Shown piece after piece: positions 1,053-27,362 of a DNA stretch of 30,377 bases (position 1 is the first letter of the stretch; each line of letters starts with the position of its first letter). The translations under genes were made by a program, and so were the position numbers. The notes beneath the pieces are model-generated. The model was not told the DNA's origin. It saw nothing but the letters and a program-made list of their open reading frames with translations, and made no database searches. Source of the DNA: Promethearchaeota archaeon (GTDB lineage: Archaea; Asgardarchaeota; Lokiarchaeia; Sigyniarchaeales; SOKP01); NCBI GenBank assembly GCA_048939015.1, contig JBHLPW010000056.1:1-30377 (forward strand). The letters run 5' to 3'.

Positions 1053-2843
1053 TTATTGTTTTTTACGTTTTTCTTGCTTTTCATATAGAATCTTAAAATA
1101 ATCATTTAGCTCATCAAGAGTTTCTTCCGTTTCATAAAGACTTGGTTTCATTATTTCGGTCTTCTTAAGGGTAAACTCATCTTCCAGTTTTTTATTTTTT
1201 AATTTTTTTTTTGTCATTTTTTTTCGATATTGATTTTTAACCTTTTGTAAGGATTCCTTTAAAGTATTTTTAGGGAAGTTCTTTTTTTTATTGTCAGGGA
1301 TTTCTGAATTCTCTTTATTTAAATTATCTAATCTCTCTAAAATAATATCATTATTGTGCTTTATTTCTGATATTTCAAGCCACTCCCTTGGTATCAGGGG
1401 AACGTTTAATAGAAATGGTCTTTTAATAGAATTTACTCGAGCAATACATTGTCCCTTCTCTAAAATGGATAGATAATCTTCATGTTCTCCATCAAGATTT
1501 AATAATTTACAGAGAAAATCTTTATCAATATGAGTCTTAAAACATACCAATACTCCACAATTCGCTAAAATTTCTTCACTTATATCGGGGTGAGTCGCTA
1601 ATGAGATTAAACATTCTCCTGTACCCCTTTGTAATAAAGCAATATCCTCCAAATAGGTAGTTAATTTGTTTTGTCGTGTTAGATCTTTAGGAGCAAAATA
1701 TTGAGTATCTTCTACAATCGTAATGTGTTTTATACCTTGAAAATTGAAAGCCCCTCGTGTGAGATTTTTATCCCAAAGATATTTCAATATCATATTAAGG
1801 AAGAACAATGCATCTTCTTTTTCTCCTCCAAGACGGATAATAGAACTAAGATCTATTAGAATATTCCTTTGGAAAAGGCTCTCTGTCTTGATTTTATGTT
1901 CAGTATCAAATAAGGCTTTTAATGACCCTAAAGAAAACCTTCTAATTCGATTTGTTATACTGATTAAGGTTTGACTTAACATCGGAATCTCATCTTTCTT
2001 ATTCTTCGCATATCCCTTACAATAGTCATAAAATCCTTGCCAACTCTGAAATTTCTTATTTTGACAAATTTTAGTCAATATTTCAACAAGCACCTTTTCC
2101 ATCTGTGGAGAGAATTCGGCGTTTTCGTCTAAGAACTTTCCACTCTTCAATATATCAAAAATCCTCTCTGCATGTACTTCTGGAAGAGAGTCTCCAGGAT
2201 TGAATATATTAATTGAAAAATTCTCTCCAGGTCTTATAATTATTAAATCTTCGATTTTCCGCTGTAAGAAGTGATATTCCCCTTTAAATTCAACTAGTAA
2301 GAATGGAATTTTATATTTCTTCGTGAAGTTCATTAAAAAATGTTGGATGAAATTACTCTTACCAGTGCCTGTGGCACCACATACAAACATATGCTTTTCA
2401 AGGTCTTCAAGTGATAGAGAGAATTTTCCTTTTTTATGCCCGTTTTCAACAATTGTACAAATTTTTATATTTCTCTTTCTTGCTTTTAAAAAAGAGGGTT
2501 TATCCAATTCTACAACGTCATCATCAGAGTGATAAACCGAATAGAAGAACAACACCGAAGAAATACATAACAATAAGAGAAAAACATTGCTAAATAATGA
2601 TTGATTATGAGAATTAGTTGCCTTTGTGAAATTCATAAGAAATGGAAGCAATATTAGAGCAAAAATTAAAATTGCTGTCCCTAATAAGAAAATAATGATA
2701 ATCTTAAGCTTATTAGCTGAGTTCTCTCTCTTTCGAGAGATAAAGAAAATTATATTTAAAATAATTAAAACTATGTTTAAACATAGATAGAAAGAAACAA
2801 ATTCAGAGGAATCCAGAACGCTTGACATATAATTCATAATCAT
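1053..2843 (-). CDS. Membrane-anchored HerA/FtsK/VirD4-CedB-like P-loop ATPase (DUF87-like)
   Basis: Three N-terminal TM helices; LEKHMFVCGATGTGKS Walker A; LLVEFKGEY; atypical Walker B HITIVEDTQ; QRGTGECLISLATHP; basic C-terminal tail. Confidence 0.8.
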   Translation of the reverse strand: MIMNYMSSVLDSSEFVSFYLCLNIVLIILNIIFFISRKRENSANKLKIIIIFLLGTAILIFALILLPFLMNFTKATNSHNQSLFSNVFLLLLCISSVLFFYSVYHSDDDVVELDKPSFLKARKRNIKICTIVENGHKKGKFSLSLEDLEKHMFVCGATGTGKSNFIQHFLMNFTKKYKIPFLLVEFKGEYHFLQRKIEDLIIIRPGENFSINIFNPGDSLPEVHAERIFDILKSGKFLDENAEFSPQMEKVLVEILTKICQNKKFQSWQGFYDYCKGYAKNKKDEIPMLSQTLISITNRIRRFSLGSLKALFDTEHKIKTESLFQRNILIDLSSIIRLGGEKEDALFFLNMILKYLWDKNLTRGAFNFQGIKHITIVEDTQYFAPKDLTRQNKLTTYLEDIALLQRGTGECLISLATHPDISEEILANCGVLVCFKTHIDKDFLCKLLNLDGEHEDYLSILEKGQCIARVNSIKRPFLLNVPLIPREWLEISEIKHNNDIILERLDNLNKENSEIPDNKKKNFPKNTLKESLQKVKNQYRKKMTKKKLKNKKLEDEFTLKKTEIMKPSLYETEETLDELNDYFKILYEKQEKRKKQ

Positions 2844-2914
2844 GTAAAAATTTTAAAAAGAACACCTTATTTCTTAATTTTTCTTTAAAAATTACACATA
2901 ACACAAAAAAAAAC

Positions 2915-4204
2915 CTATATTAAGTCAAGATTCTCCAATGATTTCTTACAGATCTCTGCTATTTTCTGTACATCTCGCATTATGATCTCATTTTTAAGTG
3001 CTATTCTTGCATACGCTCTACTAAGTATAAATATCATTCTAGTTAGAGGGAACCCTTCCATTTTCCTTTCTTTATTTTTTTCATTATTTATACTTTCCAT
3101 TTCATTCGTAAATTCTTTAATATATGCAATTGCTGGTTTAGAAAGCTTGGGATCATATGTTCTTTTAGAGTATATAATATATTTTCTTAAAAAATCTCTT
3201 TTGATGTTTTTCAAACTCTCTCTTGTTCCTTTAATGTCATTGATTTTCTTATTAGTACTAATCAAAACTAAGTCAAACTTGCTAAGAATCTTATTTTTAT
3301 GTTGAAACTTTAAATTATCATAAACAGACCTGCTTTTATGAGAGATGTCATCATACCACTTATTATCTCCTGTATTCGCTGCAGCAATTATTGAGCTTTT
3401 TCTCAAAATTTCATCAAATTCTTCATATAGTTTGGTTAGTCTATACGGCTTCATTTCTGTTAAATTATCAATTAATATCATACCGTTTGTGGCAAATTCA
3501 GTCAATCCAGCTTTCTCAATGTGTTTCCCCCCTTTTTTGTCTCGACTATTATACTGTACAAACCGTTCCTCTGATTTCTGAGAAAACTGTATCGTGTTAT
3601 TCGGAAAAAAGTTATTAAGGATCTTCAAAAATGAACTTTTACTTGTTTTTGAGCCTCCAACAATTAATAAACTAAGGTAGCACGAAATCTTATTCGTAAC
3701 AAGGTGAGGAACGATATTACATGCCAAAAGGAGGGTTCCTATCAATTTTATATCATCATTGATAAAGATATCATCCTGAAAAATATAATCCGCTAAAATG
3801 GATTGTATTGAAGGATTCAGAGCAAATAATTTTATTTCGGAAATATCTTGGCGAGTAATCTCGATATTCTCATTAATAATTTTGATGTCTTTTGCAACAA
3901 GGATCATATTCATTGTCTTGCCATTTTGTACGTTATTTATTTCCAGAGTTCCTGTTATTTGTATTTTATCTCCTAAACTAGGAAAACCGTTAGTAGATTC
4001 AGTTAAAATTACTTCTTTTTCATGATGAATGCCAAATTTCTTATGATCATCTTTAAGCCCTTGAACATGAACAGATTGGATGAATCCATAATTTTCATCT
4101 TGATATACTGGAGATAATTTTGTAACAACTCCTTCACAAACCACCATTTTATTCAGATACGTTGAGTTTAGTTTCTCCAATGGTACATAAGGTTCTGAGA
4201 CCAT
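2915..4204 (-). CDS. Degenerate, truncated MCM-family protein (OB fold + AAA+ domain), probably ATPase-dead
   Basis: MCM-like motifs in the expected order: LNKMVVCEGVVTKLSPV, GDKIQITGTL, LLIVGGSKTSKS, EKAGLTEFATNGMILIDN, SIIAAAN, ILSKFDLV, LRKYIIYSKRTYDPKLS, LSRAYARIALKNEIIMRDV. Confidence 0.8.
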   Translation of the reverse strand: MVSEPYVPLEKLNSTYLNKMVVCEGVVTKLSPVYQDENYGFIQSVHVQGLKDDHKKFGIHHEKEVILTESTNGFPSLGDKIQITGTLEINNVQNGKTMNMILVAKDIKIINENIEITRQDISEIKLFALNPSIQSILADYIFQDDIFINDDIKLIGTLLLACNIVPHLVTNKISCYLSLLIVGGSKTSKSSFLKILNNFFPNNTIQFSQKSEERFVQYNSRDKKGGKHIEKAGLTEFATNGMILIDNLTEMKPYRLTKLYEEFDEILRKSSIIAAANTGDNKWYDDISHKSRSVYDNLKFQHKNKILSKFDLVLISTNKKINDIKGTRESLKNIKRDFLRKYIIYSKRTYDPKLSKPAIAYIKEFTNEMESINNEKNKERKMEGFPLTRMIFILSRAYARIALKNEIIMRDVQKIAEICKKSLENLDLI

Positions 4205-4393: not shown

Positions 4394-5353
4394 ATGTATT
4401 TAATAAAATCTCAATGTTTAATTAAATTAGTTTTCATAAAAATGGGATTCACGGATACAATTAAATTAGAAGCAAAAAGAAGAGCATGTTATAGATGTTG
4501 TATATGTGAAAAGCCGAAATTTCTTCATGTTCATCATATAATACCAAGTGAAGAATTAGGCCCAGATACAATTGAAAACGCTGTAGCTCTTTGTGTATCA
4601 TGTCATGATCTATATGGTCATGATAAAGTAAAACGAAAATGGGTAAAAGAAAAAAGGAATTGGTGGTATACTCAATGTTATAATACCAGAAATCAAGCTT
4701 TTGATATCGAAATCTTACAAAAGATAAATGAAATTTATGAATTCTTAGAAAGTAGAGAGAGTCGACTGCAGTCAACAGAAGAGTATTATTTATTTCTTAG
4801 AGAACAGATTCAATCCCATATTCAAAGATTAAATAATGTGGTTTCTGATTTGTCACTAAAATTAACAAGAAGAGAAGTAAATCAGATAAATATAATTCAA
4901 GATGATATAGAAATGATTAAAGGTATGACAAAACTTATTGAAACGATATCAATGGAAGATTCTGAGGATTACTATCTCTGGAAAGATATATCTGATTACT
5001 TGACAAGAATTGAAATAAGTACCACAATCCCAAATGAATATACTTTTTTTCATCTGATCAATAAATTATTAACGGACTATTTGAGTACCAATATTTTAAG
5101 CGAACATTCAGAAGATCCTAATCTTGGTCTAGTAGATATCTTTATTAGTCCTACCATTGGCATAGAAATTAAATTACTTAGCTCTCATACCCACATTAAT
5201 AGGATTATTGGACAACTAATAGAAATTTTAAGAATTAGCAAGTTTAAATTTCTCATTGGAATTGTTATGGATATGACAACAGGTAAGCAATTAAAACGAT
5301 ATGATCAATTAATTTTTGGTGAAAATAGAAATATAATACTTATAATTAAATAA
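4394..5353 (+). CDS. HNH endonuclease with central coiled coil and C-terminal PD-(D/E)xK-like domain (likely start ATG 4442)
   Basis: CCIC..LHVHHIIP...DTIENAVALCVSCHD is a Zn-binding HNH signature. The C-terminal VDIFISPTIGIEIK...IGQL resembles a restriction-endonuclease-fold active site. Confidence 0.75.
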   Translation: MYLIKSQCLIKLVFIKMGFTDTIKLEAKRRACYRCCICEKPKFLHVHHIIPSEELGPDTIENAVALCVSCHDLYGHDKVKRKWVKEKRNWWYTQCYNTRNQAFDIEILQKINEIYEFLESRESRLQSTEEYYLFLREQIQSHIQRLNNVVSDLSLKLTRREVNQINIIQDDIEMIKGMTKLIETISMEDSEDYYLWKDISDYLTRIEISTTIPNEYTFFHLINKLLTDYLSTNILSEHSEDPNLGLVDIFISPTIGIEIKLLSSHTHINRIIGQLIEILRISKFKFLIGIVMDMTTGKQLKRYDQLIFGENRNIILIIK

Positions 5354-5426: not shown

Positions 5427-7751
5427 TTAATTTAGATATGGGAACTTAATAATCTGTGGCTCATGTTTGCCTTTACATAAGATAAAAGCGTGTCCTACTG
5501 GGAGTCGCTTCAATTGTTCTCTCTGTTCACTATTCAAGTAATCTTTAAGATACGCACATCCACTTCCTTCAATCAAGAAGAAAATCTTAGTGTTACAAAG
5601 ATCCACAAGTTCTTTCTTTATGTCTTTTGGGTGTTGTGTAGCGTATATTACTCCATATCGCCTTTTGCGACCACGATGCTGAATTTCACTAAGAAAGTGC
5701 AATATTCGTTTTTGGTAATCGGTGTTTGCTAAAAGTTTAGGCATTATCCGAGTGACTTCATCTAAAACAAATATTACTCCAATATCAGAGGTATCAATAT
5801 CAGAATCTCGCTTCATTTTATACTTATGAAATACTGCTAAAAAGTAAAGAGCGACAATTCGTTGCTGATCATCATCTAAATCAAAACAGTCTAGGACTGT
5901 AATTTTTCCTGGAACTAACATCTGTTCAATATCAATTGGCTCTGCATCCAGCCGATCAAATAAATCCAATGTAATTGAGAGTAGCGAACGAGTTATAGCA
6001 TCTCTCACGCTCGCATTTAAACGATAAGCGGGAAGAGTCATATATCTAAGAATCTCAGTATGCAATTCTGTAAATGTAAATGTTCTATTAGGATAATCAT
6101 AAATTATATCTTGAATGATACGTTGTAAAAGTGTGCTTGAGACGCTTGGAAGTTCATGAAGAAATAATAGTAAATGTTTAGGATCAATACTATTCAATGA
6201 TAAGCACCAATCAGTTTCATCGGTCAAATGAATAATCTCAATATTTTCAGATTCTACAGGATCGATGTCCCATTTAGCCATTAGTTTCATTGATTCTTCA
6301 ATTGAAGGGATGCATGGTAGATTAGAAAACTCTCCCTCAGCATCAAAAATGATAATAGCAGGGCAATTTGCCTGCGGAGCTGTTGAAAGCGTCATAAATC
6401 GAATTGCTGATGTTTTTCCTGTGCCTTGAGTACCACCCATAAAAATTCCTTGATAATAAAGCAGTGGATTAAAGTGGTACTTGTATTCTTGATCGATGTC
6501 ATGAAGCCAGCCAAATGGGATGCCATTTTGGGGTATTTTTTTGAATTCATAAAACTCCCATTCTCTCAATGGCGTAATCTTCCCTTGAATAATTGTTTGC
6601 GGACGAGGACTTCGGGGACCTTCTGGATGAAGCTCAACTATTGGATTCAGTTTTATAGCAAAAACCTTTTCATTAAGACTTTTTAGAACAATTGAAGCAT
6701 TTTCCTCATAACACCTAATAAGTTCAATAATGCAAATGATTCGAATTCCATCTTGTCGTTCAACAGCGACTAAGTCTCCATCTTTCACATATTCAGCCTT
6801 GTCTGCCCATAGATACCCTTCCATTTTATTCTCCTTATTATTTACTAGCTCCATAGGTTTTGATTTATCTGTATTAACCCAGCCTAAAGCATCAAAGGCT
6901 CTTACATTCTTTTCTACTTCACTAGACCCTTTAGATACTTTTTCTTCATCTAATGAAATTATTGAAGCTGCTGCAGTAACATCTCTAGAACTATTTAGTC
7001 CACTTTCATCTTGAGTATCAACCTTAAACTCTAAAGCATCCAAACCATTCTCTCTAATGAAATCTATAGCTGCTACCTTCAGTTTATCAGTAAAATCGTA
7101 TTCAATGATTTTATTTGGAAAGTAAATTAGTACTACCTTTTGACATTGCATTCCTGTATTTTCTTCCAAGATAATACCATAAATACAGGCCTGGATGAGA
7201 TCTCTATAATACTTAGACTCAGGATTGCTTGGATCTTCCCCTTCGAAAGGATAAGACTTGAATTCTCGTACAATTAAACGTTCGTCATCTGTTAATACCA
7301 TCTCATCAATACGAGCACTGATTTTTGCTCCTTCTATAACACCGATTTCCTCTTGTTCGAAGGATATAATTCCTCCAAATAGTTGTTTCTCTAGTTCTAT
7401 GGGAATCACAGACCAATTATTTTCTTTCGCGTAATTTTTAGCTAATTCAACAATCTGTTGGTATAAGATCTTCAGTAGTGTGTTAACATCCTTATAATAC
7501 ATATTTAGTTTCTTGTTATTTCGAACTTCAGCTAATATTTTATTGCGAACTTCACGAGTTCTCTGATTTAATATTGTATGACTCACTCTTGCATTAGCTC
7601 CTGTCTTTAAGACTTCCTTAAAAAATCGCGCCTTGATATGGTGTAAGAGATTTCCTCGTCGTGTACCTATTGATGAATATATTTTTTTTCCATATCCTTT
7701 ATCAAGGGTTCTGCTAACAGACTTAATATTATTTGATATTTCCTTTGTCAA
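5427..7751 (-). CDS. Fusion of a RecB/Cas4-like PD-(D/E)xK nuclease with a HerA-family ATPase
   Basis: N-terminal nuclease motifs RGNLLH, EKQL, ARIDEM, REFKS and QACIYG. These are followed by a HAS-barrel-like segment, GGTQGTGKT (Walker A), IFDAEGEF, VLDEV (Walker B) and GRKRRYGVIYATQHP. Confidence 0.85.
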   Translation of the reverse strand: MTKEISNNIKSVSRTLDKGYGKKIYSSIGTRRGNLLHHIKARFFKEVLKTGANARVSHTILNQRTREVRNKILAEVRNNKKLNMYYKDVNTLLKILYQQIVELAKNYAKENNWSVIPIELEKQLFGGIISFEQEEIGVIEGAKISARIDEMVLTDDERLIVREFKSYPFEGEDPSNPESKYYRDLIQACIYGIILEENTGMQCQKVVLIYFPNKIIEYDFTDKLKVAAIDFIRENGLDALEFKVDTQDESGLNSSRDVTAAASIISLDEEKVSKGSSEVEKNVRAFDALGWVNTDKSKPMELVNNKENKMEGYLWADKAEYVKDGDLVAVERQDGIRIICIIELIRCYEENASIVLKSLNEKVFAIKLNPIVELHPEGPRSPRPQTIIQGKITPLREWEFYEFKKIPQNGIPFGWLHDIDQEYKYHFNPLLYYQGIFMGGTQGTGKTSAIRFMTLSTAPQANCPAIIIFDAEGEFSNLPCIPSIEESMKLMAKWDIDPVESENIEIIHLTDETDWCLSLNSIDPKHLLLFLHELPSVSSTLLQRIIQDIIYDYPNRTFTFTELHTEILRYMTLPAYRLNASVRDAITRSLLSITLDLFDRLDAEPIDIEQMLVPGKITVLDCFDLDDDQQRIVALYFLAVFHKYKMKRDSDIDTSDIGVIFVLDEVTRIMPKLLANTDYQKRILHFLSEIQHRGRKRRYGVIYATQHPKDIKKELVDLCNTKIFFLIEGSGCAYLKDYLNSEQREQLKRLPVGHAFILCKGKHEPQIIKFPYLN

Positions 7752-7761
7752 CCTTTTTTTC

Positions 7762-7770
7762 TCACCTCCT
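7762..7770 (-). promoter_or_regulatory. Shine-Dalgarno sequence (AGGAGGTGA) for the nuclease-HerA gene
   Basis: Strong archaeal SD 10 nt upstream of TTG 7751, inside the 28-bp gap after the NYN gene stop. Confidence 0.7.
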
Positions 7771-7779
7771 TTTTGTAAT

Positions 7780-8355
7780 TTAAAATAACTCTAACTCTCC
7801 TGTTGTTTTTTTCATTCTATTTACCACATCAACAGTGGTTATATTTGACGAAGGTGACCTTCTATTTAAACAAAAAATATTTGAACCTATTTTTTCAATT
7901 TTTTCATAATTAATATTAGGACTCAAGCACACTTCGCTGTCAATTATCATGAATGTAACTCTTCTCTCTTCTAACCATTGATTACTTGGTAACTGACATA
8001 AATAATCTCTAAATTTATCATTAGATATGATAAAGCAAAAATCGTGTTTTAAAGCAAAACTAAGAATAAATTCGTCAGCTATTTTTGGAGCTTCAACAAT
8101 TTTACCTTCTTTAACAAGTACTTCAAATTCAACGGGTTTATCAATGTAATATCTGAGAGAAGGATCACAAATACAATGAATATTTTCTTCAGAAAAACCT
8201 AACTCCTTTGTCAAATAATGAAGTAAAGATATAATATCCGATAATAAAGGAACTTGATACTGATTGAACTGAGAATATGCTACGTTATTACAATCAATGT
8301 AAACATGGAGCTCTTTTAAAATTGGATAATCTTTAAAACAGTTTGATAAACACAT
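7780..8355 (-). CDS. NYN/PIN-fold ribonuclease, Zc3h12a (Regnase)-like
   Basis: Motifs VYIDCNNVAY, CICDPSL, ADEFIL and IISNDKFRDY carry the acidic residues typical of the Regnase-type PIN active site. Confidence 0.8.
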   Translation of the reverse strand: MCLSNCFKDYPILKELHVYIDCNNVAYSQFNQYQVPLLSDIISLLHYLTKELGFSEENIHCICDPSLRYYIDKPVEFEVLVKEGKIVEAPKIADEFILSFALKHDFCFIISNDKFRDYLCQLPSNQWLEERRVTFMIIDSEVCLSPNINYEKIEKIGSNIFCLNRRSPSSNITTVDVVNRMKKTTGELELF

Positions 8356-8483
8356 TTTTTCACAATTCCTTCTTTTTATTAAATTCTCGATTGTTTAATT
8401 TAAAATAATAAATAATTTGTTAATAGTATTTTGTTATAGACTTTGTGCGCAGTACCGAACTCAATCCATAAATAGGAACAAGA

Positions 8484-8504
8484 ATTATATTAATTTAATA
8501 TAAT
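8484..8504. promoter_or_regulatory. Perfect inverted repeat ATTATATTAA-T-TTAATATAAT (possible operator overlapping the TATA region)
   Basis: 10-bp arms with a 1-nt spacer, 22-42 nt upstream of ATG 8526, in the divergent intergenic region. Confidence 0.35.
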
Positions 8505-8525
8505 CATAATGATGAACTAAAAATC

Positions 8526-11500
8526 ATGGATATTACTAAAAAGACTATATATCCCGAAAATTTAGAAAAAGGTAATTATGAATTTAATATTCTGCGAATT
8601 CTGGAAGAAAATGAATATTGCGTATGGCAGGATTTTCTAGATGAACGACTAAACATGTCTCCTACCACAGTATCAAAATATACAAGAAAATTAATAGAAA
8701 AAGGATATATCAAAAAAGAAAAAAGAAAATACAAGATAACTACAGATGGATTGAACAGAATAGCTGATTTAGAATCAATTGGAGAAGAAAAAAGTTTTCC
8801 ACCTGATGATCTTGAACTTCTACCTGAAGAAAAAATTATATGGATGGTTAATGTTAATCCTTATTGTCAATGGCGTGACTTTATGAACGAAAGATTAGAA
8901 ATGAATAGATCTACTCTTTCAAAAACTCTCGCTCGTTTAATTAGAAATGATTTGTTAGAAAAAAAGATTGATTCAGAAATATCTCATTATCCCATTTATG
9001 TGAAGAAAAGAGAAGCTGTGAGAAAATATAGGGCGATATTAAATTCCAAAAATTTAGATCCTAAAACAAGACAATTAGAAAAACTCAAAATGGTACGAGA
9101 AATTAGCCATGATAATAAACAACTTTTTGAAGAATTCGATATACATGAATTTGATATCAAACATAGATTCAATAAATATAAACTTATATTTGATTACTTA
9201 ACTTATAGACAGATATTTCGTGATAATGAAAAGCATTACAACCTAACTTTACTTTTTCTCGCAATCAATCATCCAGATAATTATCCAAATTACATTAGTT
9301 TAAAAGACTTTTGTACTAATTATGATATTAAAAAGACAGAATTAGATTATTATATAGGAGAATTATTAGAGCCAAGTTATTCCTCAATAAAACTATTTTC
9401 ATTAAATATTAACAATGAAAAATCTTACTTTTTTCATGAAAAGGGTAAATTAGCAAAAATTTTAAAAGCTCTAATACAAGATTATTTGGATAAAAAATTT
9501 CAAAAAACTATGGAAAAGGAGTGGAGGAAATATGATTATGATATAAAAATTCCTTTATCCTATGACGAATTATTAGAGATCGTTTCTATCATTATAGATA
9601 AACATGCATTTTTGAAACAAGAATTACGTTCTTCATTATTAGTATTCTTACCAAGCTTCATCAATTACTTAGAATATAAAATTGAACAGAAATATGAAAA
9701 ACTTTCAAAAAAGAAATCATCTATTTCAAGAGAGTTTGAAATAATTGAATATTTAAAAACATCTATGGACCTTACTGAAATTGAACACCCTAAATTAAAG
9801 GAAGAAAGAAAACTCGAAATTTCAGAAGAAATAGATTACATAGATAAAAAAACATTAGATTCGCTGGAAAAATCCAAAATTAAAATTAATTCATTAATTA
9901 AGGAAAACCATTATACAGAAGCTTTAAAAGAAATTAATGAAAGTTTGCCAATATTTGAAAAGGTTGATGAAGAAATTCAATTTTTCGAGCTTAATAAATT
10001 ATCCAAAATCAATATGGAATATTATGAGCTAAGGTTATTTTTTTATATTAATAAAATGAAGTGTTTAGTTAAATTGAGGAATTTTGATGATCTCTTAGAA
10101 AATGCTATAATAACATATGATCTTGATTCAATCTCAAACGTAGTCATAGATTTGATTGAAATTGAGCAATATAAAATTGCAAATGACATATATGATAAAG
10201 CATTTGATCCTTATAATAAACTAAGTGGCGATGACCGAAATGAAGCAATTGGCGAATTTTGGTGGGGTATTCATAGTTATTTTCATAATAAAATTGTTGA
10301 CGAATTTAGAAATAAAACCTATGAAAATGCGCTGACCATTATCAACAAATATTTGAATTTTAGTCCCAATGATGAAGAAATGGTCGAATTAAAAATTAAA
10401 GCCTATTTTTATTTAAAGGAATATGAGAAAGCAATAGAAATTACTGATAATGCTATTAAAAAGTGGCCAAAAAGACCAGAACATATTAAATGGAAATTAA
10501 CAGAAGAGGAAAAAGAGGAACCTATATGGGCATTAATGCTAGACAAAGAAAAAGATAAAGACAAGATCGAAAGTATTTCATACGGTTATAAATTCTGTCA
10601 CTTAAAAGCTCGGATTTTACTAAATATGAAGAAGTATGATGAATCATTAGAAATATTAGAAAAAATAATCAAAGCGAATCCAAATATATCAGAATCTTAC
10701 TATCTGAAGAGTTTAATTGAATATGAATTAAATCATAGTGAGCAAGCGTTAGAATTACTTAATTTCGCAATAGATATTGATCCAAATGAAGATTTATACT
10801 ATGGGGTCAAAGCTGATTTCCTGTTTAATTTTAACAAATATTCAGACGCTTTAGAGGTTATCAATAAATCAATTGAACTAAATTCTAGAAAACCAATTTA
10901 TTATAATATAAAAGCTAAAATCCTACTCTTTATGAATAAACCAAACAACGCTTTAAAAGTTATTGATCATGCAATTCAAGAATTTCCAGAATTCTCTGGG
11001 TTTTATAAAACAAAGAGTCTTATATTATCCAATCAGGAAAAATCATTAATAGCTCTTGAAAAAGCTGAAGAGTTAGGGGATAAAATTAGTTATTATAATA
11101 AAGCTCAAACATTATATAACCTTGGAAGAAGCGATGAGGCTTTAAAAGCAATAAATATAGAACTAAATAAAAATTTTGATGATCCAATTGGCTTTGAACT
11201 GAAAGCCGCCATCCTAGCTGAATTAGGAAGATTTGATGAAGCATTTAATGCATATGAAAAAATTAACGAAATTAATGCAGATTATGCAAAAATAACCAAC
11301 ATTAAGTCTCATATCTATAACAAGATGGCTTATTATTTTGCGGAAGAAGGTAATCAAGAAGAAGCCGTAAAAGCGATAAAGAACGCAATTGAAATTTCGC
11401 CCGATTCAGCAGATTATTACGATTCTTATGGTGAGATTTTAATGATTTTTAAAGATTTTAAAAACGCGGTAGAAAAGTTCGAAAAAGCTAAAAAACTTCA

Positions 11501-11735
11501 TTTCACCCCAATTGAGACATTCATTAAACTTGGAAAATGTTTATTTGAACTAGGTAAATATGAAGAAGCCTTAGAAAATTTGAGAATTGGTAGGAATCGA
11601 GCGGTACATACTGTTAAAAGAGTAATGTCAACTGAAGAGGATAAACGTTTTATTGTAGATTTTCCACAGACCGAACTGATTCAAGAAGCAGAGAAATATA
11701 TTTTAGAAATAAAAAAAATTCAGGATAAAAAATAG
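8526..11735 (+). CDS. Tandem winged-HTH (MarR/ArsR-like) plus C-terminal TPR-repeat protein
   Basis: Two similar N-terminal units (NEYCVWQDFLDERLNMSPTTVSKYTRKLIEKG and NPYCQWRDFMNERLEMNRSTLSKTLARLIRND). The C-terminal half has many ~34-aa TPR-like repeats (e.g. ALELLNFAIDIDPNEDLYYGVKA). Confidence 0.85.
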   Translation: MDITKKTIYPENLEKGNYEFNILRILEENEYCVWQDFLDERLNMSPTTVSKYTRKLIEKGYIKKEKRKYKITTDGLNRIADLESIGEEKSFPPDDLELLPEEKIIWMVNVNPYCQWRDFMNERLEMNRSTLSKTLARLIRNDLLEKKIDSEISHYPIYVKKREAVRKYRAILNSKNLDPKTRQLEKLKMVREISHDNKQLFEEFDIHEFDIKHRFNKYKLIFDYLTYRQIFRDNEKHYNLTLLFLAINHPDNYPNYISLKDFCTNYDIKKTELDYYIGELLEPSYSSIKLFSLNINNEKSYFFHEKGKLAKILKALIQDYLDKKFQKTMEKEWRKYDYDIKIPLSYDELLEIVSIIIDKHAFLKQELRSSLLVFLPSFINYLEYKIEQKYEKLSKKKSSISREFEIIEYLKTSMDLTEIEHPKLKEERKLEISEEIDYIDKKTLDSLEKSKIKINSLIKENHYTEALKEINESLPIFEKVDEEIQFFELNKLSKINMEYYELRLFFYINKMKCLVKLRNFDDLLENAIITYDLDSISNVVIDLIEIEQYKIANDIYDKAFDPYNKLSGDDRNEAIGEFWWGIHSYFHNKIVDEFRNKTYENALTIINKYLNFSPNDEEMVELKIKAYFYLKEYEKAIEITDNAIKKWPKRPEHIKWKLTEEEKEEPIWALMLDKEKDKDKIESISYGYKFCHLKARILLNMKKYDESLEILEKIIKANPNISESYYLKSLIEYELNHSEQALELLNFAIDIDPNEDLYYGVKADFLFNFNKYSDALEVINKSIELNSRKPIYYNIKAKILLFMNKPNNALKVIDHAIQEFPEFSGFYKTKSLILSNQEKSLIALEKAEELGDKISYYNKAQTLYNLGRSDEALKAINIELNKNFDDPIGFELKAAILAELGRFDEAFNAYEKINEINADYAKITNIKSHIYNKMAYYFAEEGNQEEAVKAIKNAIEISPDSADYYDSYGEILMIFKDFKNAVEKFEKAKKLHFTPIETFIKLGKCLFELGKYEEALENLRIGRNRAVHTVKRVMSTEEDKRFIVDFPQTELIQEAEKYILEIKKIQDKK

Positions 11736-12832: not shown

Positions 12833-14806
12833 TTAATCCATAAAAGGATAATAATTAATTGTCTGTATTAAGTAATGTTCTCCAGTAGCACCATTAATGA
12901 CTAATCCTAACCGATTCTCTAATTGAGTAAGTATTTGCCGTTCGAAAGAATCTTCAGAAAAAAGAGCGTTATTGGGATAATCTTCTCTAAAAATAATCTT
13001 AATACTTGGTTGAGAAACCACATCATCAAACAAACGAGCGGGAGATTGGTCTGCTATAACGAATCCAACACCGCGACTTCGATACTCTTTCAGCAATTCT
13101 GAGAATATTTTTGCCATTTGCTCTTTCATGATAAAGTCCGCGTCATCGCTATTTGTCGTAATCGGCTTCTCTAAAATGGCATGAGCTTCATCAATGACAA
13201 TAAGATATTTTAAATCTTCCGCTTCACTATCTTTCGTAAGTGTTCTTAGGAGTTGAAAAATTACGTTTACAATGAGCATTTTCACAAATTTGCTACACAT
13301 AGATAAATCAAGAAATATATTTTCACCATTTAACCAACTATCGACCCATTCTGGCAGGTCTTCGTTTATTTTCAGCACTTTTTGAATTTTTTCCTCATCA
13401 AAAACATTCATTCGATTTCTGAACACTTGTAATAAATTAGCTTGTTCTTCTGGACCGTATGGATTATTCTTAATATAGGTTTCTACACCCTTAAGTAGAC
13501 CAATGAAGTACTCAGGTAATTCATTTTTTAATTCTAAAAAACCCACTTCAGTACGATAGATAATTTTTTCGAAGACATTTTTCAAGCCTAGTGACGCACA
13601 TATATAAGTAGCAGTCTCTTCTAATCGCTTCTTTAAGGTTTCTCTTTTGGTTTTAGTGAAGTATGGAATTTGAAAATCCATATCAGAATATTTTATTTTC
13701 TTGAAATTACGATGAAAAATCTCTTGAGACTCTTTCGCAACATTTAGTACTAAAATCCCTGCTTTTTTTGATTTTTGAGCAAGTTCTTGGATGAACCGAG
13801 TAAGAAAGTATGTTTTCCCGCTTCCAGATTTTCCAAATATAGCCATATCTTGAGGAAGTTTATTGATTGGAACAAAAGTCTCATGTTTAGTTATCACCCC
13901 ATTTTTGATATGATAACCAACTGTGATCGCTTTTTTCTTAAATTTATTATGAATATCAATATATCTAACATTCTCATTTTTCAAAATCGGAAGTCGAGGC
14001 AAAGGGAGATCTTCTGGAAAATCGAAATTCACATCCTCCTGCACAAAATTTCTCAAAGACTCACTCCCATCATTAAATACACTCCCTTCCAATATATCTA
14101 AATTTGACACTCCTGAGGGATTAATAACTTTCGCACGATACCCCATTTCATTCTCAATTTCCATAGATAAAAACTGAATTTCTCCTTCAAGCTTAGCTTT
14201 CTCTTCCACATTAGAGTTATCCAAATCTGATTTAATAAAGACTCTGATATTAAATAACTTCGATTGCTCTTGAGACATCTCCGAACGAGGTTCTCTCTGC
14301 CATAAAATAATTAATTGGGTCGTGTGGGCTGTTTTATGGTAAAACGCGCTAATATATCGCTCAATAATATTAATTTTGTTTTTAATATACCCCATTGGTA
14401 AGACAATCTCAAACAATTGGTCTTTATTCAATATTTCTTGACTATTCTCTTCAATTGGCTTCGCTTCAATGACTCCATCCAATCCAACGAATTTAAACCT
14501 TAGATTTGAAAGCCAAGCATGACCTGATCTAAGAGCATCTATTTTTGATGCTTCTGTTGTGAAAAAGACAACCTCAATATTATCATTCGCCGTTAATTCA
14601 AGACCATATACCCCAGGAGGATTGTTTCCAAATGGATCATAAAGGAAAGATCTAATATCCTCATGCTTCTGATAAAAAGGTACTGCTGACTCAGGTACCT
14701 CTTGAGGTTCGAATAACTCTGGTGCTTGGGTTATATGAATACGAGTCTGCCAAAATAAGATACCATGGTTATCTTCCACTTTATCCCCCTTCACTATACC
14801 CTTCAT
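12833..14806 (-). CDS. HerA/VirB4-like P-loop ATPase with an uncharacterised N-terminal domain (probable true start GTG 14779)
   Basis: DMAIFGKSGSGKT (Walker A), LIVIDEAH (Walker B), EYRSRGVGFVIADQSP. The GTG at 14779 sits 1 nt after the upstream stop and is preceded by GGGGGA. Confidence 0.85.
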   Translation of the reverse strand: MKGIVKGDKVEDNHGILFWQTRIHITQAPELFEPQEVPESAVPFYQKHEDIRSFLYDPFGNNPPGVYGLELTANDNIEVVFFTTEASKIDALRSGHAWLSNLRFKFVGLDGVIEAKPIEENSQEILNKDQLFEIVLPMGYIKNKINIIERYISAFYHKTAHTTQLIILWQREPRSEMSQEQSKLFNIRVFIKSDLDNSNVEEKAKLEGEIQFLSMEIENEMGYRAKVINPSGVSNLDILEGSVFNDGSESLRNFVQEDVNFDFPEDLPLPRLPILKNENVRYIDIHNKFKKKAITVGYHIKNGVITKHETFVPINKLPQDMAIFGKSGSGKTYFLTRFIQELAQKSKKAGILVLNVAKESQEIFHRNFKKIKYSDMDFQIPYFTKTKRETLKKRLEETATYICASLGLKNVFEKIIYRTEVGFLELKNELPEYFIGLLKGVETYIKNNPYGPEEQANLLQVFRNRMNVFDEEKIQKVLKINEDLPEWVDSWLNGENIFLDLSMCSKFVKMLIVNVIFQLLRTLTKDSEAEDLKYLIVIDEAHAILEKPITTNSDDADFIMKEQMAKIFSELLKEYRSRGVGFVIADQSPARLFDDVVSQPSIKIIFREDYPNNALFSEDSFERQILTQLENRLGLVINGATGEHYLIQTINYYPFMD

Positions 14807-14990
14807 CTACATAGTCATAATCCTTCCCTTCCTCACTCGAAGGCTCATCAATTCCGTCGAAATCCCTTCCATCACTTCCAGGTTCCTCGCCTAATCCTTC
14901 AAACTCCTCATGTCCTCCTTCTGAAGGCTCATCGATTCCTTGGTAGTCATTTGATTCTTCCCCAGAACATTTGTCAATACCATCATAATC
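14781..14990 (-). repeat. Five 14-aa acidic C-terminal repeats (consensus D[YF]xGIDE)
   Basis: DYDGIDKCSGEESN / DYQGIDEPSEGGHE / EFEGLGEEPGSDGR / DFDGIDEPSSEEGK / DYDYVDEGYSEGG*. Confidence 0.8.
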
Positions 14991-16832
14991 CTTTGCTTGT
15001 TTCGCAACATTTTTTGGATCGTATACACTTCGATATTCTGGTTCATTAAGATGCCACTCATCGACCAACACTCTTCCCCCTTCTGTTTTATCTTTCGGAG
15101 TTTTTTGTGGAGCATCTCCGGGGATCAATGTTTTGACTTCTCCTGGAGTATGTTCAGGTGCTAACCCGCTAGTTTCAAATGAGTGGTTATTTATATTTGC
15201 TTCAGAGGGAACATCCTCTTGTTTTTCAAGAGGCTCTTGACCCTCCCCTGTTAATGATTCCTCTTGAATCTCATCAGACTCTTCTTCTGTCGATAATGCA
15301 GGGTTTTCTTCTGATATATCCTTCCCTTCTTCCTGTGCTGACTCCTTCTCATTTTCTTCAGAAGATTTTTTCTTCTCTTCTTCCTCTTCATGCTCTTGTA
15401 TAGGGTGTTTTTCAGGGCCTTCAGGTTTTGTATCTGATGTTTGCTTCTCATCCTGCTTTTCAGCATTCCGTTCGTCAATATCTCTTGCAACATCATCAAG
15501 GTTCTTATCCTTGAGATACTCCTTTGCTTCCGTATAATTTTTAACTCCATACTCGCCTAACATCTCCTTAATTTTATTATTTATTATCTTCGCATCCATC
15601 CCATATTTATGATCAATTTCATTCTTTTGTAAATTTTGGATATCTTCTAAAAATTCTCGCTTATCTTGAATTTCTGATTTACCCTCATATTTCTCGGTTT
15701 GATTACTCAACCTCTCATTTATGTCCTTTACCACATCGTCAAGATTTTTTTCCTTTAGATATTCTTTTGCTTCTGTATAATTCTTAACACCATGTTCTCC
15801 AAACATTTCACGTATTCTTTTATTTACTGTAGTTCTATTCATACCATATTTTTGTGCAAGCTCTTTATTGGACAGATTTTGAATATCTTTAAGAAATTCT
15901 TGTTTATTATCGATCTCCTTTTTCACTCCAGATTTGTCAGGTTGATTGCGCATCCTCTCATTGATATCCTTAAGAACCTCATCAAGGTTTTTGCCTTCAA
16001 GATATTTCTTAGCTTGGGAAAAATTATTTACTCCTCGATGCCCCAGCATTTCTTTAATTCTTCTATTCATACATTTCCCATCTATATCATGTTTTTCGTT
16101 TAAATCCTTTTTTTTCATCTCTTGGATATCATTGAGAAATTCTCTTTTATCGGTGATTTCTCTCCTTCCGTTTGCCCGTGAATTGAACTGCCTTTTGCGA
16201 TATTTATATTCTTGCCATTTATTTGTTACCCCTTTACTTACATTATCTTGATATTTTTGATCTTTCCATTTATCTGATAATGATTGACTCATTTTGTCTA
16301 GAGTTTCTGGATTTCTTGCTATCTCTTGATTTACTTCAGTCATCTTATTAAGCCATTCTGGATCTTTAGCTCTCGCTTGTCTTTCTTTAATCTGCTTTTC
16401 TTGATATTCAAGATCATATTGCCATTTTTCTAATCCTCTTTCACTTAAGTATTCTTTTAACCTCTCGCTTAATCTACCTCCTCGACCCCCCTCTCTCATA
16501 TTATATCCTTTATCTGGATTCATTGTATCATATTTAATTATATTATCATCTTCTTTTCTATCCAATTCCTCTTGATTCTTCGCGACATCTTCCGTTTTTA
16601 ATTTAAAGTTCTCTTCTCCGTGCTTAATAACAGCATTTTCTATATAACGACGTTTTTCTCCTCTTTTTTGTTTGGCAAAACCCTCTTGAATCTCTTCTTT
16701 CCAACGTTCTTCTATAGGAATCTTATCATCTGCCCAACGACTTGAAACCGTCTGTCCTATATAATTCTTTCCATTTTTTATATTGGTAGCTCGATAAATA
16801 TAACCATAGGGCTTTTCTTGATTTTTAACCAT
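14781..16832 (-). CDS. GIY-YIG endonuclease with 17-aa helical repeats, three 81-aa HTH-like repeats and an acidic repetitive tail
   Basis: YGYIYRATNIKNGKNYIGQT...EERW...LDRKE...GYNMREGG forms a GIY-YIG module. The repeats are visible in both protein and DNA. Confidence 0.85.
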   Translation of the reverse strand: MVKNQEKPYGYIYRATNIKNGKNYIGQTVSSRWADDKIPIEERWKEEIQEGFAKQKRGEKRRYIENAVIKHGEENFKLKTEDVAKNQEELDRKEDDNIIKYDTMNPDKGYNMREGGRGGRLSERLKEYLSERGLEKWQYDLEYQEKQIKERQARAKDPEWLNKMTEVNQEIARNPETLDKMSQSLSDKWKDQKYQDNVSKGVTNKWQEYKYRKRQFNSRANGRREITDKREFLNDIQEMKKKDLNEKHDIDGKCMNRRIKEMLGHRGVNNFSQAKKYLEGKNLDEVLKDINERMRNQPDKSGVKKEIDNKQEFLKDIQNLSNKELAQKYGMNRTTVNKRIREMFGEHGVKNYTEAKEYLKEKNLDDVVKDINERLSNQTEKYEGKSEIQDKREFLEDIQNLQKNEIDHKYGMDAKIINNKIKEMLGEYGVKNYTEAKEYLKDKNLDDVARDIDERNAEKQDEKQTSDTKPEGPEKHPIQEHEEEEEKKKSSEENEKESAQEEGKDISEENPALSTEEESDEIQEESLTGEGQEPLEKQEDVPSEANINNHSFETSGLAPEHTPGEVKTLIPGDAPQKTPKDKTEGGRVLVDEWHLNEPEYRSVYDPKNVAKQAKDYDGIDKCSGEESNDYQGIDEPSEGGHEEFEGLGEEPGSDGRDFDGIDEPSSEEGKDYDYVDEGYSEGG
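15468..16160 (-). repeat. Three tandem 243-bp (81-aa) coding repeats
   Basis: Units start at 16160 (EITDKREFL), 15917 (EIDNKQEFL) and 15674 (EIQDKREFL), an exact 243-nt period. Shared motifs include GVKNYTEAKEYL and KNLDDV. Confidence 0.9.
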
Positions 16833-24496: not shown

Positions 24497-25888
24497 TTGT
24501 CAGACAAAGAAGCTGATACTTATATTTTCAAAAGAAATAGTGAAAGAGAAGTAGAAAAGTTTGTAGGAATTGATGCTTTTGCCACATCAAAAATTGATGG
24601 GATTGGGGGTGAATATAAGCAAAATTTTAAGGATTTTATAGTTAAAGAAATAGAAAGTAATGGAAAAATACTTAACATAAGAGAAGATTACAAATCTCAA
24701 CCTTTTTCTAAAGAATTAAAGGATGGATATACAAAATTTAATTTAATAAAAATTAATCGAGATACATTTAAAGCTTTAAGAGAAATAAGTAAAGCCTTGA
24801 AAATACCTTATGAAATGTTAAATTATTCTGGGTTGAAAGACAAACATTCCATATCAGTTCAAAAAGTCTCAATAAAAGGAGATCATATTGATAATTTAAA
24901 AAAATTAAATCTAAAGGATATTTTTATTAGAAATATCTATCCTGCAAAGAAACCTGTTAAATTAGGAAGCCATTGGGGAAATAACTTTACAGTCTTAATT
25001 AGAAATATAGAAAATCGTAGGGATTTGAAAAATAGATTAGAACAAATTTTCAATTATTTAAGGAAAAAAGGATTTCCTAATTATTTTGGACTTCAAAGAT
25101 TCGGAAGTTATAGACCCAATTCTCATATTGTTGGACGATATATTTTAGAAGGTAATTTTAAGAAAGCCTTTGAAGAATTTGTATCAACTACTTATACCTC
25201 TGAGTCTAGTGAATCAAAAATCGCAAGGAGAGAATTTAGAAATACACAAGATTTTGTGAAAGCTTTAGAAAATTTTCCAAAAAACCTAAAATATGAAAGA
25301 AACATGCTTCATTATCTAATTGAAACACCAAAAGATTACATGGGTTGTATTAACACATTACCTTCTGATTTGAAAAAGTTATTGATTAGTTCCTTTCAAT
25401 CTTATCTTTTCAATAAGATGCTTTCATTAAGAGTAAAGAAAGGCTTTCCCTTATTTACGCCGATAAAAGGTGATGTGATTTCCATATTAGATGACTATAA
25501 TGGAAATCTCACATATGTAAATTATATATATGGGAGCTTTTATGATAAATTCTTAAAAAAAGCATTAAATTTAAATCGAGCTGCCATTATTATGCCTATT
25601 ATTGGGAATACAACCGATTTAGAGTCATTCCCCTTGATGAAGACTCTATTTGAAGACACTATTAAGATAGAAAAAGTTGATAAAAATATTCTCTATAACA
25701 AATCAAATACAGAACTCGAGATGAAAGGTTCTATTAGAGCTATATCTGCTAAACCTACTGGTTTAAAATTATTAGAATTTAACGATGATGAACTTAATCC
25801 AGGAAATATAAAAATTCAATTTGAATTTTCTTTACAAAAAGGAAGCTATGCTACGATGCTAATTAGAGAACTTATTAAACCAGTTTAA
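24497..25888 (+). CDS. truD: tRNA pseudouridine(13) synthase TruD
   Basis: DFIVKE, GLKDKHSISVQ, GNNF, GFPNYFGLQRFG, FQSYLFN, FSLQKGSYATMLIRE. Confidence 0.96.
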   Translation: MSDKEADTYIFKRNSEREVEKFVGIDAFATSKIDGIGGEYKQNFKDFIVKEIESNGKILNIREDYKSQPFSKELKDGYTKFNLIKINRDTFKALREISKALKIPYEMLNYSGLKDKHSISVQKVSIKGDHIDNLKKLNLKDIFIRNIYPAKKPVKLGSHWGNNFTVLIRNIENRRDLKNRLEQIFNYLRKKGFPNYFGLQRFGSYRPNSHIVGRYILEGNFKKAFEEFVSTTYTSESSESKIARREFRNTQDFVKALENFPKNLKYERNMLHYLIETPKDYMGCINTLPSDLKKLLISSFQSYLFNKMLSLRVKKGFPLFTPIKGDVISILDDYNGNLTYVNYIYGSFYDKFLKKALNLNRAAIIMPIIGNTTDLESFPLMKTLFEDTIKIEKVDKNILYNKSNTELEMKGSIRAISAKPTGLKLLEFNDDELNPGNIKIQFEFSLQKGSYATMLIRELIKPV

Positions 25889-27362
25889 GTTCTGATGATA
25901 TTACAGTTTCAATACCAAAAATATCAATTACCTTTATTAGAATATTGTAATTCCCTGGTTTATCATAATGGTAATACTTTGATTTTAAAGCTAATTTTCT
26001 ATCTTTTGGAGTTCTAAAAGAAAACCACTTAGCCTTAAAAATATTATTTTGGGGGTAATAATCAACAGCCCAATAATCAATCCAATCAGAAAAAGATTTA
26101 ATATCTCCTTTAACTTTTTCTGAAATTAAATCAATAAAAGGTAATTGATAATCGATCAATTCTACATTAATCCTATTATTTTGTTTATGGATCTTCACGT
26201 GTAAATTGGGGGATTCATTGATTTTATAACCTTTCTGATCTTGAACCTCCTTCTTCAAAAGGTTATAGGATATTGTATCTAATTTATCCATTTTTTCAAT
26301 TCCTAAGATTTTAAAAGATTGAGGGGTTTTATTGTATTTTTTTTTCCAATCTATAATATCATTACTTTTATCTAGGTTAAGTATTCTTTTCCTTACTATA
26401 TGAATCGCGTGTTTATTTGAATCACATCCAATCCATCGTCTTCCAAGCTTTTCTGCTACAGTTAATGTAGTACCTGAACCACAAAAGAAATCTGCTACAA
26501 GATCATTGCTGTTTGTTGACGCCAGAATAATTCTTTTTAATAAACGTTCTGGTTTTTGTGTAGAAAACCCTTGATATTCTGAAGTATTAGCTCTAATATA
26601 GGGAATATCACTCCAAACATCTCGAGGGAAAATTCCTTCAGTTTCTACATAGACTTTCCTAGAAAGTTTCTTTCCATTATGGCTTCCTCCCCTATAATAA
26701 AATACACCTTTATCATCCTTTTTTAAAGCATTCTTAACTCTATCAGAAAATTCTTGGTATATCCTTGGATCATCTCGAAATACGTAATCATCAGTTTTTG
26801 AGTAAAATAGGATAGTATCATAAGATCTAATAAAAAAACGTCGAGTTTTTACTGAAGCAGCAGGATAAGCCCAAATTATTTCATTTCTGAAATTTTCATA
26901 TCCAAAAATTTCATCCATAATGACTTTGATATAATGAGAAATATGCCAATCGAGATGTATAAATATAACCCCGCTATCTGCTAATAGTAGCTTCATTAAA
27001 ATTAGGCGTTCACGCATAAAATCTAAATATGAATTTAAACCTTCATTCCATTTATCATTATAGGCAATTTCATCTATGAAATTACCATTTTCTCCTATTT
27101 GAACTTTAAGGTTGAAATTTCCTCCTGTACCAAAAGGGGGATCAATATATATGAGAGAAATTTTGCTTTTAAACTTGGTAATCAATGATTTCATTACTGT
27201 TTTATTATCTCCCCAAATTAGTAGATTCTGCCACTTTTCGTCAGGTTTAGAATCCATACCAATAGATGGATATATATCGAGAACATGAAAAGGTTTAGTT
27301 TCATATGGTTTTGAAATAATATCCTCTATTTCCAACTTGCCTTTCCATTTCAATTCAACCAT
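25875..27362 (-). CDS. Site-specific DNA amino-methyltransferase (beta class, type III Mod-like), apparently orphan
   Basis: NLLIWGDN, IYIDPPF (motif IV) before DFFCGSGTT (motif I), FRNEIIW, TQKPERLLKRII. Confidence 0.92.
   Translation of the reverse strand: MVELKWKGKLEIEDIISKPYETKPFHVLDIYPSIGMDSKPDEKWQNLLIWGDNKTVMKSLITKFKSKISLIYIDPPFGTGGNFNLKVQIGENGNFIDEIAYNDKWNEGLNSYLDFMRERLILMKLLLADSGVIFIHLDWHISHYIKVIMDEIFGYENFRNEIIWAYPAASVKTRRFFIRSYDTILFYSKTDDYVFRDDPRIYQEFSDRVKNALKKDDKGVFYYRGGSHNGKKLSRKVYVETEGIFPRDVWSDIPYIRANTSEYQGFSTQKPERLLKRIILASTNSNDLVADFFCGSGTTLTVAEKLGRRWIGCDSNKHAIHIVRKRILNLDKSNDIIDWKKKYNKTPQSFKILGIEKMDKLDTISYNLLKKEVQDQKGYKINESPNLHVKIHKQNNRINVELIDYQLPFIDLISEKVKGDIKSFSDWIDYWAVDYYPQNNIFKAKWFSFRTPKDRKLALKSKYYHYDKPGNYNILIKVIDIFGIETVISSELKLV

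Follow-up and report, generated by a model that had tools for sequence, protein, structure and literature searches.

Positions 5427-8355 of contig JBHLPW010000056.1, from a Promethearchaeota archaeon, were found to contain two adjacent genes, one coding for an RNase of the NYN type (gene 1) and the other for a protein in which a RecB-type nuclease is joined to a HerA ATPase (gene 2, hereafter the fusion). The window analysed here is the whole 30,377-bp contig, which belongs to a metagenome-assembled genome of 4.86 Mb in 125 contigs. The sequencing runs listed for the locus were DNA runs of sediment metagenomes, with no RNA run among them. Judged from sequence comparison, the pair is probably (probability roughly 0.55) a mobile accessory defence module of the 'HerA motor + nuclease' kind, seen to date in Asgard-labelled archaea alone. 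With an abortive-infection alternative counted in, it is quite likely to serve defence in one way or another, and it is nearly certain that the fusion and its partner, NYN or other, make up a real conserved module.

Layout of the pair

The two genes were found to be co-oriented and 28 bp apart, with a Shine-Dalgarno sequence before the second, and the coordinates, the gap and the sequence itself were all as described in an earlier reading of this DNA (the original prediction). The features of the pair were as follows.

7780-8355, minus strand: NYN gene (gene 1), 191 amino acids (aa), ATG start
Parts of the NYN protein: NYN core ~16-148; variable linker ~149-171; conserved C-terminal tail 172-191, ITTVDVVNRMKKTTGELELF
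7752-7779, minus strand: intergenic spacer of 28 bp, containing AGGAGGTGA at 7770-7762
5427-7751, minus strand: nuclease-HerA fusion gene (gene 2), 774 aa, TTG start
Parts of the fusion: nuclease ~30-243; disordered linker 244-283; HAS-like beta-barrel ~284-430; HerA ATPase ~431-774

As read from the sequence, AGGAGGTGA (7770-7762) stands 10 nt before the TTG of gene 2, and this start is credible because the N-terminus aligns with the starts of the homologues. Tight same-strand spacing or overlap of the partner and fusion genes was also found in the homologous loci.

The nuclease-HerA fusion

Motif conservation and the structural model show gene 2 to code for a predicted single chain containing an intact RecB-type PD-(D/E)xK nuclease, a flexible linker, a HAS-barrel and a HerA ATPase. 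Among 30 homologues (29-78% identity), the nuclease was found to contain invariant G33, H37, D149, K165, Q187 and Y191, and E132 was also invariant in an alignment of 22 nuclease domains. The ATPase contained invariant G440 and G445-K446-T447 (Walker A), followed by the presence of invariant D664-E665 (Walker B), R693/R695/R697 (arginine finger) and T705-Q706 (ATQ) in the 30 sequences. The motif order of the RecB/PDDEXK_1 nucleases (G-x3-H, E, D, (D/E)-x-K, Q-x3-Y) was present, as was the motif set of the HerA clade (Walker A/B, arginine finger and ATQ glutamine). The original prediction of an intact RecB nuclease with a complete HerA stood on these motifs, except for the glutamate of its 'ExK' motif: position 163 was found to be either E or D across the fusion family.

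Gene 2 matched the Pfam DUF87/HerA family (E 1.5e-8) and the PADLOC models mad8 (3.9e-15, residues 438-765), HerA (8e-13) and Cas4 (1e-4). The AlphaFold2 (AF2) model of the fusion, with a predicted local distance difference test score (pLDDT) of 78.6, contained four parts, including an all-beta region at 284-430. Its top Foldseek matches were the HerA chains of HerA-NurA, SIR2-HerA, DUF4297-HerA and TdpAB (E 3e-20 to 1e-14), and the alignments spanned 520-620 columns, barrel included. This length exceeds what the ATPase alone would give and therefore places the protein in the HAS-barrel plus HerA fold. The nuclease profile, compared with solved proteins, matched Exonuclease V (E 0.0016) and Cas4 (E 0.29), and PF12705 matches are on record for many homologues of the fusion.

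The assignment of the nuclease to Cas4 in the strict sense was considered and ruled out by the missing four-Cys Fe-S set of true Cas4, only C203 being nearly invariant in the nuclease domain, and by the missing association with cas1 or cas2, as no cas genes were found in the window or in the fetched loci. The Cas4 models matched the fusion weakly (1e-4 to 0.02).

The fusion family was found to contain 51 clusters at 90% identity, all of ~730-814 aa. An exhaustive hidden Markov model search with the nuclease-domain profile against 1.84 billion representatives yielded only 29 proteins at E <= 0.001. The long proteins closest to the profile were fusions of 774-859 aa, most of the short matches look like contig-end fragments, and this search gave no clear case of a split form with a stand-alone nuclease and a stand-alone HerA.

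More distantly related fusions of the Cas4/PDDEXK_1-DUF87-HerA_C type, 795-903 aa long, were also observed (P0171, P0173, P0176 at L064:5001-7388, and P0182), at least one of them from Promethearchaeota. Locus L064, the only one of these with usable context, contained membrane-protein genes upstream and no tail-bearing partner.

The NYN partner

Gene 1 is a predicted, catalytically intact NYN RNase of the Zc3h12a type. It was found to match Pfam PF11977 (RNase_Zc3h12a) at E 4.6e-10, with 39.9 bits against a cut-off of 23, and none of the PADLOC models matched it. The residues D21, N24, D94, E95, S111, N112 and D113 were invariant in an alignment of 18 NYN family members, in agreement with the earlier statement that the acidic catalytic motifs of PIN/NYN proteins are kept. 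When the profile of the NYN family was compared with the PDB, the closest matches were ZC3H12C, ZC3H12B, ZC3H12A and PRORP (E 8e-4 to 0.05). The AF2 model of gene 1 was confident only at residues 10-110, and its best Foldseek matches were MCPIP1/Regnase, ZC3H12B/C, KHNYN and PRORP, at E ~1e-3 and a template modelling (TM) score of ~0.5. The label 'Regnase-like NYN' is right at the family level because of the PF11977 match and these structural matches, though the likeness is modest. No zinc-finger family matched the protein of gene 1, the C-terminus of which contained the variable linker followed by the 20-aa tail. The NYN partners were found to form a compact family, with 104 clusters at 46-66% identity.

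Conservation and distribution of the pair

The search seeded with the NYN gene gave 40 loci from metagenomes and genomes, of which 31 were testable, that is, had at least 300 bp of sequence downstream. The fusion was present immediately downstream of the NYN gene in 27 of these 31. Two of the exceptions (L035 and L052) contained a ~400-aa gene after the NYN gene, on contigs that stop too early for a fusion to be seen; the other two (L042 and L056) were orphan NYN genes, decayed, with the tail truncated or absent. The NYN gene was also found directly upstream of fusions at 36-76% identity (for example 76%, 55%, 44% and 40%). Every informative source name among the homologues was that of an Asgard lineage: Thor-, Loki-/Promethe- and Helarchaeota among the fusion clusters, followed by the label Heimdallarchaeota at locus L061. 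The check for which the original prediction had called, namely whether the pair is conserved, thus came out in its favour, with named homologues in Asgard only.

The distribution was found to be sparse. Of 400 genomes from across the phylum, 9 contained the fusion; within the genus, 3 of the 53 other genomes did. The genome of the window was found to contain a second pair on contig C8 at 1078-3973 (L015:1078-1647 and 1670-3973), at the contig end, with 62% identity to the window pair in the NYN protein and 43% in the fusion; its two PF11977 genes are the partners of these two fusions and were the only ones found in the genome. In a tree of 20 fusions the two pairs were placed in different major clades, and the second pair is therefore not a recent duplication. 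Accessory parts come and go on the fusion tree, whereas the core of partner and fusion persists. The genome also contained a canonical NurA on contig C107 and several better-scoring DUF87 genes elsewhere, and the fusion is therefore not the repair HerA.

The partner tail and exchange of the partner

The partners were found to end in a tail of ~20 residues with the pattern [ST]T[LIV][DE][VI][LV]..I....GE[LF].[LF][FY], also written as TTLDVL..I....GELELF. In the Loki clade the partner was only 111-116 aa long and no NYN domain was detectable in it. The tail was the only segment that aligned the NYN family with the 111-aa Loki partner (hhalign, 22 columns, E 1e-5, probability 82%). The Loki clade was nested inside NYN-bearing clades on the fusion tree with 99/99 support, which indicates that the N-terminal domain was replaced and the tail was kept. 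The tail was truncated or absent in the two orphan NYN genes that lack a fusion. Taken together with the conservation pattern, the chance that the tail is a docking element for the fusion is put at about even. A complex prediction for the full-length NYN protein and the fusion, with alignments, gave a score of 0.01 against a mark of 0.32, which is no verdict for or against binding.

A reading of the 111-aa Loki partner as a shortened NYN protein was plausible by eye and was ruled out, as hhalign aligned the 22-residue tail only. The 169-aa Hel-type partner at L008 showed no significant similarity to the NYN family or to the tail (E 0.31), and its tail resemblance is unproven. Locus L006 was found to contain the fusion without any partner.

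Genes linked to the pair

Upstream of the pair, the window was found to contain a divergent gene for a protein with a winged helix-turn-helix (wHTH) domain and TPR repeats.

8356-8525: divergent intergenic region of 170 bp, AT-rich, between the NYN operon and the wHTH-TPR gene (from geometry only)
8526-11735, plus strand: wHTH-TPR gene, 1069 aa (Pfam)

The 1069-aa protein contained an N-terminal MarR-type wHTH domain at ~19-68, followed by the presence of C-terminal TPR repeats at ~580-1069, and a feature search on its middle region gave scores that were all below 0.9. Among the NYN-seeded loci, 26 were testable for this gene, and in 16 of them (~60%) a full-length homologue was found upstream of the pair in divergent orientation; such homologues were recorded at L004, L006 (partner-less), L009 and L062. 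The protein is a probable regulator or sensor of the module. The intergenic region is presumed to be the site of the promoters for both divergent transcripts. It contained no more palindromes than DNA of 25% GC would yield, and AT-rich palindromes and sigma-70 matches were at background level in a scan that does not model archaeal promoters. The tRNA and Rfam scans of the window returned no matches.

In 13 distinct loci (L060:8524-8697, L006:10384-10560, L005:10347-10535 and 10 further loci), a helical open reading frame (ORF) of 58-62 aa was found to follow the fusion at a distance of 30-60 bp. Its consensus is ..LEDKLMDLI...IPVPVFE.E...ILKEIEYLE.L, and it may be a fourth component. No homologue of this small ORF was found in the window (best E 0.08-0.4). 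Its place in the window was taken by an HNH endonuclease gene of 319 aa at 4394-5353 on the plus strand, convergent on the fusion gene and with a weak match to the PADLOC model mREase_IV (1e-5); the first ~25 nt after the fusion stop still resemble those of L060.

A further gene of ~380-425 aa was found to contain a weak AAA_14 match followed by a C-terminal wHTH domain of the ArsR/MarR type. It was present between the NYN gene and the fusion at L058:2904-4178, after the NYN gene at L035:2289-3485 and L052:3663-4196, and just upstream of the NYN gene at L001:6293-7444. The ~400-aa gene that follows the NYN gene in L035 and L052 is homologous to the insert of L058. This wHTH-ATPase gene may be an alternative to the wHTH-TPR protein.

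Proposed function

By comparison with solved HerA complexes, the fusion would form a hexameric, ATP-driven translocase on double-stranded DNA, with six tethered nuclease domains at the barrel face, where NurA, SIR2 and DUF4297 sit in the known complexes. The ring would load on invading DNA and degrade it. The partner, from its conservation pattern, would dock on the fusion by the C-terminal tail and add a second nuclease activity directed at invader RNA, host RNA or a displaced single strand, and its N-terminal domain would be exchangeable. The divergent wHTH-TPR protein, where present, would regulate the operon or sense the trigger.

Three points weigh against this defence reading. The conserved module was found to contain no mark that would tell self from non-self (a linked methylase, for instance), and because the conserved core contains no modification gene the sparing of host DNA is left unexplained. 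The NYN domain was replaced in the Loki clade and the partner was absent from one locus, so that the RNase may be peripheral. In the window and its close relatives the pair shares its island with an MCM-like gene and two further HerA-like ATPases, a setting that could represent a mobile element rather than a defence island. The original prediction of a single-chain DNA translocase-nuclease paired with an RNase effector was in line with the intact domains and the conserved pair; its RNase half was weakened, as the Loki clade and the partner-less locus show that NYN is not essential.

A rather unlikely alternative is abortive infection, in which the HerA fusion would mainly sense foreign DNA ends or replication intermediates and the tethered NYN RNase would be the effector, set free or switched on to degrade host and viral RNA and stop growth. 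In SIR2-HerA, which is among the structural matches of the fusion, HerA serves as the platform on which a toxic effector is activated. The NYN active site was strictly conserved over ~100 clusters, the NYN protein evolves more slowly than the fusion (46-66% against 36-78% identity), and effector modules typically exchange the effector domain while the adaptor tail stays constant. However, the nuclease active site of the fusion was itself invariant, so that the fusion must do more than sense. In the Loki clade and at L006 the fusion is kept although no NYN domain is there, and HEC-09, the only defence candidate with a NYN domain that turned up in the literature, did not protect in tests.

Genomic surroundings

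The earlier expectation that the pair would lie among defence genes was met by several unrelated loci with defence neighbours. The loci L002 and L003 were found to contain DpdB-like (9e-28) and BrxP/SspD-like (1e-52) genes, and L008 contained DpdB-like, LmuB-like and PglZ genes. The neighbours at L005 were a mad3/PtuA/GajA-like ATPase and a NACHT protein, those at L006 a type IIG restriction-modification enzyme (1e-96) and an AAA_15/21 protein, and L001 contained a DrmC-like PLD gene.

In the loci with a non-NYN partner (L002:3442-6413, L003:4501-7482 and L008:357-7234), the DpdB/DndB-like gene was observed to be divergent from the pair, in the position of the wHTH-TPR gene, followed by the presence of a BrxP/SspD-like PAPS-reductase gene in L002 and L003 or of LmuB-like and PglZ genes in L008. 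The DpdB-like gene with the BrxP/SspD-like or LmuB/PglZ-like genes could be a linked modification module or a BREX-like one.

The window and its close relatives L001 and L060 were found to share an island next to the thermosome gene and at the end of a contig. It contains a GIY-YIG and HerA pair, an HNH gene, an MCM-like gene and a membrane-anchored HerA/VirB4-like ATPase. The other genes observed in the window were as follows.

447-2843: 596-aa HerA/FtsK-like ATPase with an adjacent 196-aa ORF
2915-4204, minus strand: 429-aa MCM-like protein of the island (MCM P-loop 1.3e-15, lid 5e-8), with disabled motifs according to the original prediction
12833-16832, minus strand: 657-aa HerA-like ATPase (PADLOC mad8 1.3e-15) adjoining a 683-aa repeat protein, GIY-YIG according to the original prediction
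25875-27362, minus strand: 495-aa N6/N4 DNA methyltransferase (PADLOC type III MTase 1.5e-89)

The 596-aa ATPase (51-52% identity) and the 196-aa ORF (27-29%) had homologues in L001 and L060 that kept their relative order, and the whole island was therefore inherited among close relatives. Homologues of the 657-aa ATPase, at 68-69% identity, were found in the same place in L001 and L060, with a clear GIY-YIG-NUMOD3 protein as the neighbour in L001; the genes at 12833-16832 are a candidate separate module. The methyltransferase gene was found among housekeeping genes (TruD and a synthetase of the AspRS/AsnRS type), without a restriction partner in the window.

From these surroundings it might be held that the pair is not host defence and is instead the machinery of a mobile element itself, for replication, transfer or partition, or its weapon against competing elements. 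The island shared by the window, L001 and L060, with its MCM-like, HerA/VirB4-like, GIY-YIG + HerA and HNH genes, is in keeping with this, as are the transposase genes that adjoin the pair in L008 and L009, and archaeal viruses and plasmids often carry HerA-like ATPases (PMC4158269). However, outside close relatives the island genes do not travel with the pair, which in distant loci is flanked by host defence genes. In the fetched homologous loci the pair was not consistently adjacent to any integrase, capsid or conjugation gene, and neither gene of the pair was found in a scan of 2.9 million viral contigs, which was pattern-based, so that the absence is weak evidence. The pair is quite unlikely to be an element's own machinery or weapon.

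Comparison with known systems

The original prediction had recognised no named system in the pair, and this held: PADLOC returned matches of single-domain models only, and no description of a NYN and nuclease-HerA pair was found in the literature on HerA, NYN, Asgard defence and Cas4-HerA fusions. The joining of a nuclease to a HerA/FtsK motor for defence is described as a 'HerA/FtsK capture' theme, with DndH as an example, in PMC10853773, and restriction endonucleases with HerA/FtsK and wHTH sensors appear in the 'capture' systems (PMC10853773; PMC12839542, BRC system). Because defence by a nuclease and a HerA/FtsK motor has already been described, the pair is a variant within a known theme.

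The DUF4297-HerA and SIR2-HerA (Nezha) systems are accessory, lie in defence islands and, like the pair, combine a HerA with a HAS-barrel, hexameric in these systems, with a nuclease or other effector from the same operon. Their HerA chains were among the best structural matches of the fusion (E 1e-17 to 1e-15), at an identity of only 12-16%. Their effector, the Cap4-like nuclease DUF4297 or SIR2, is a separate protein, whereas here a RecB-type nuclease is fused to HerA and the separate partner is NYN. Neither the window nor any fetched locus was found to contain a DUF4297 or SIR2 domain.

DndH and the other 'capture' systems share with the fusion an endonuclease domain directly upstream of a HerA/FtsK ATPase in one polypeptide, according to PMC10853773 and PMC12839542. 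The same papers give fast-evolving wHTH DNA-binding proteins as components and propose interception of invader DNA and its pumping into the nuclease. DndH as described there is unlike the fusion: it is ~1700 aa long, contains SWI2/SNF2-C, a target recognition domain and an inactive methylase, and works with DndF and DndG, none of which is present here. No PADLOC matches to DndF, DndG or DndH were found, and the 774-aa fusion contains the nuclease, barrel and ATPase only. A NYN partner, a docking tail or a TPR protein is not among the components named in the available parts of the 'capture' papers.

The mad8 gene of the MADS system was the best PADLOC model for the ATPase of the fusion and covers the ATPase only. 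MAD7 and MAD8 are described as an ATPase-nuclease module that is needed for defence (PMC13662399). MADS, a bacterial operon of eight genes, is unlike the pair: its methyltransferase, kinase and OLD-like parts had no counterpart among the adjacent genes here.

Regnase-1/ZC3H12 and KHNYN share with the partner the PF11977 family and the same catalytic residues, and are its best solved structural matches. The partner, unlike them, contains no CCCH zinc finger, KH or other RNA-binding domain and ends in a short docking-type tail instead. The identity between them was ~20%, at E ~1e-3 and TM ~0.5, and PF11977 also matched in 3 of 14 bacterial and archaeal control genomes. On these values, the relevance to the origin of eukaryotic immune RNases that the original prediction had seen was not borne out, and the predicted link of the Asgard NYN protein to eukaryotic Regnase is weak. 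It is very unlikely that the pair is an Asgard-special dual-substrate machine in which the ring would cut invader DNA while the docked RNase would destroy transcripts, with the NYN lineage as the sister or source of Regnase/KHNYN.

HerA-NurA shares the fold of the ATPase and barrel with the fusion (top Foldseek matches 9x1m and 4d2i), and its nuclease lies at the entry of the HerA ring. NurA is a separate, dimeric nuclease of another fold, whereas the nuclease here is RecB-type and fused, and the gene is rare. NurA is linked to mre11/rad50 and is conserved in archaea. A housekeeping or stress complex, in which the fusion would resect or repair DNA ends as HerA-NurA does and the RNase would clear R-loops or RNA-DNA hybrids, could draw on the structural matches to HerA of HerA-NurA repair complexes and on the resemblance of the nuclease to the DNA-end processors Exonuclease V and Cas4, but is most improbable given the 9 genomes in 400, the canonical NurA and better-scoring HerA genes elsewhere in the genome, the two divergent copies from different clades in one genome, and genomic contexts that vary and are rich in defence genes.

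Meaning of the finding

HerA-based immunity (SIR2-HerA, DUF4297-HerA, TdpAB and DndH) is an active field, and to our knowledge the effector on the HerA ring is a separate protein in every solved example. The family described here would be a single-chain form occurring in nature, in which motor and nuclease are one protein and an RNase partner is apparently attached by a short transferable peptide, and the tail peptide would be a compact handle on the recruitment of effectors to HerA rings. Asgard-labelled archaea, the only sources of the module to date, have defence systems that are little studied. If the defence reading is true, the pair would be an archaeal example of a NYN RNase in immunity.

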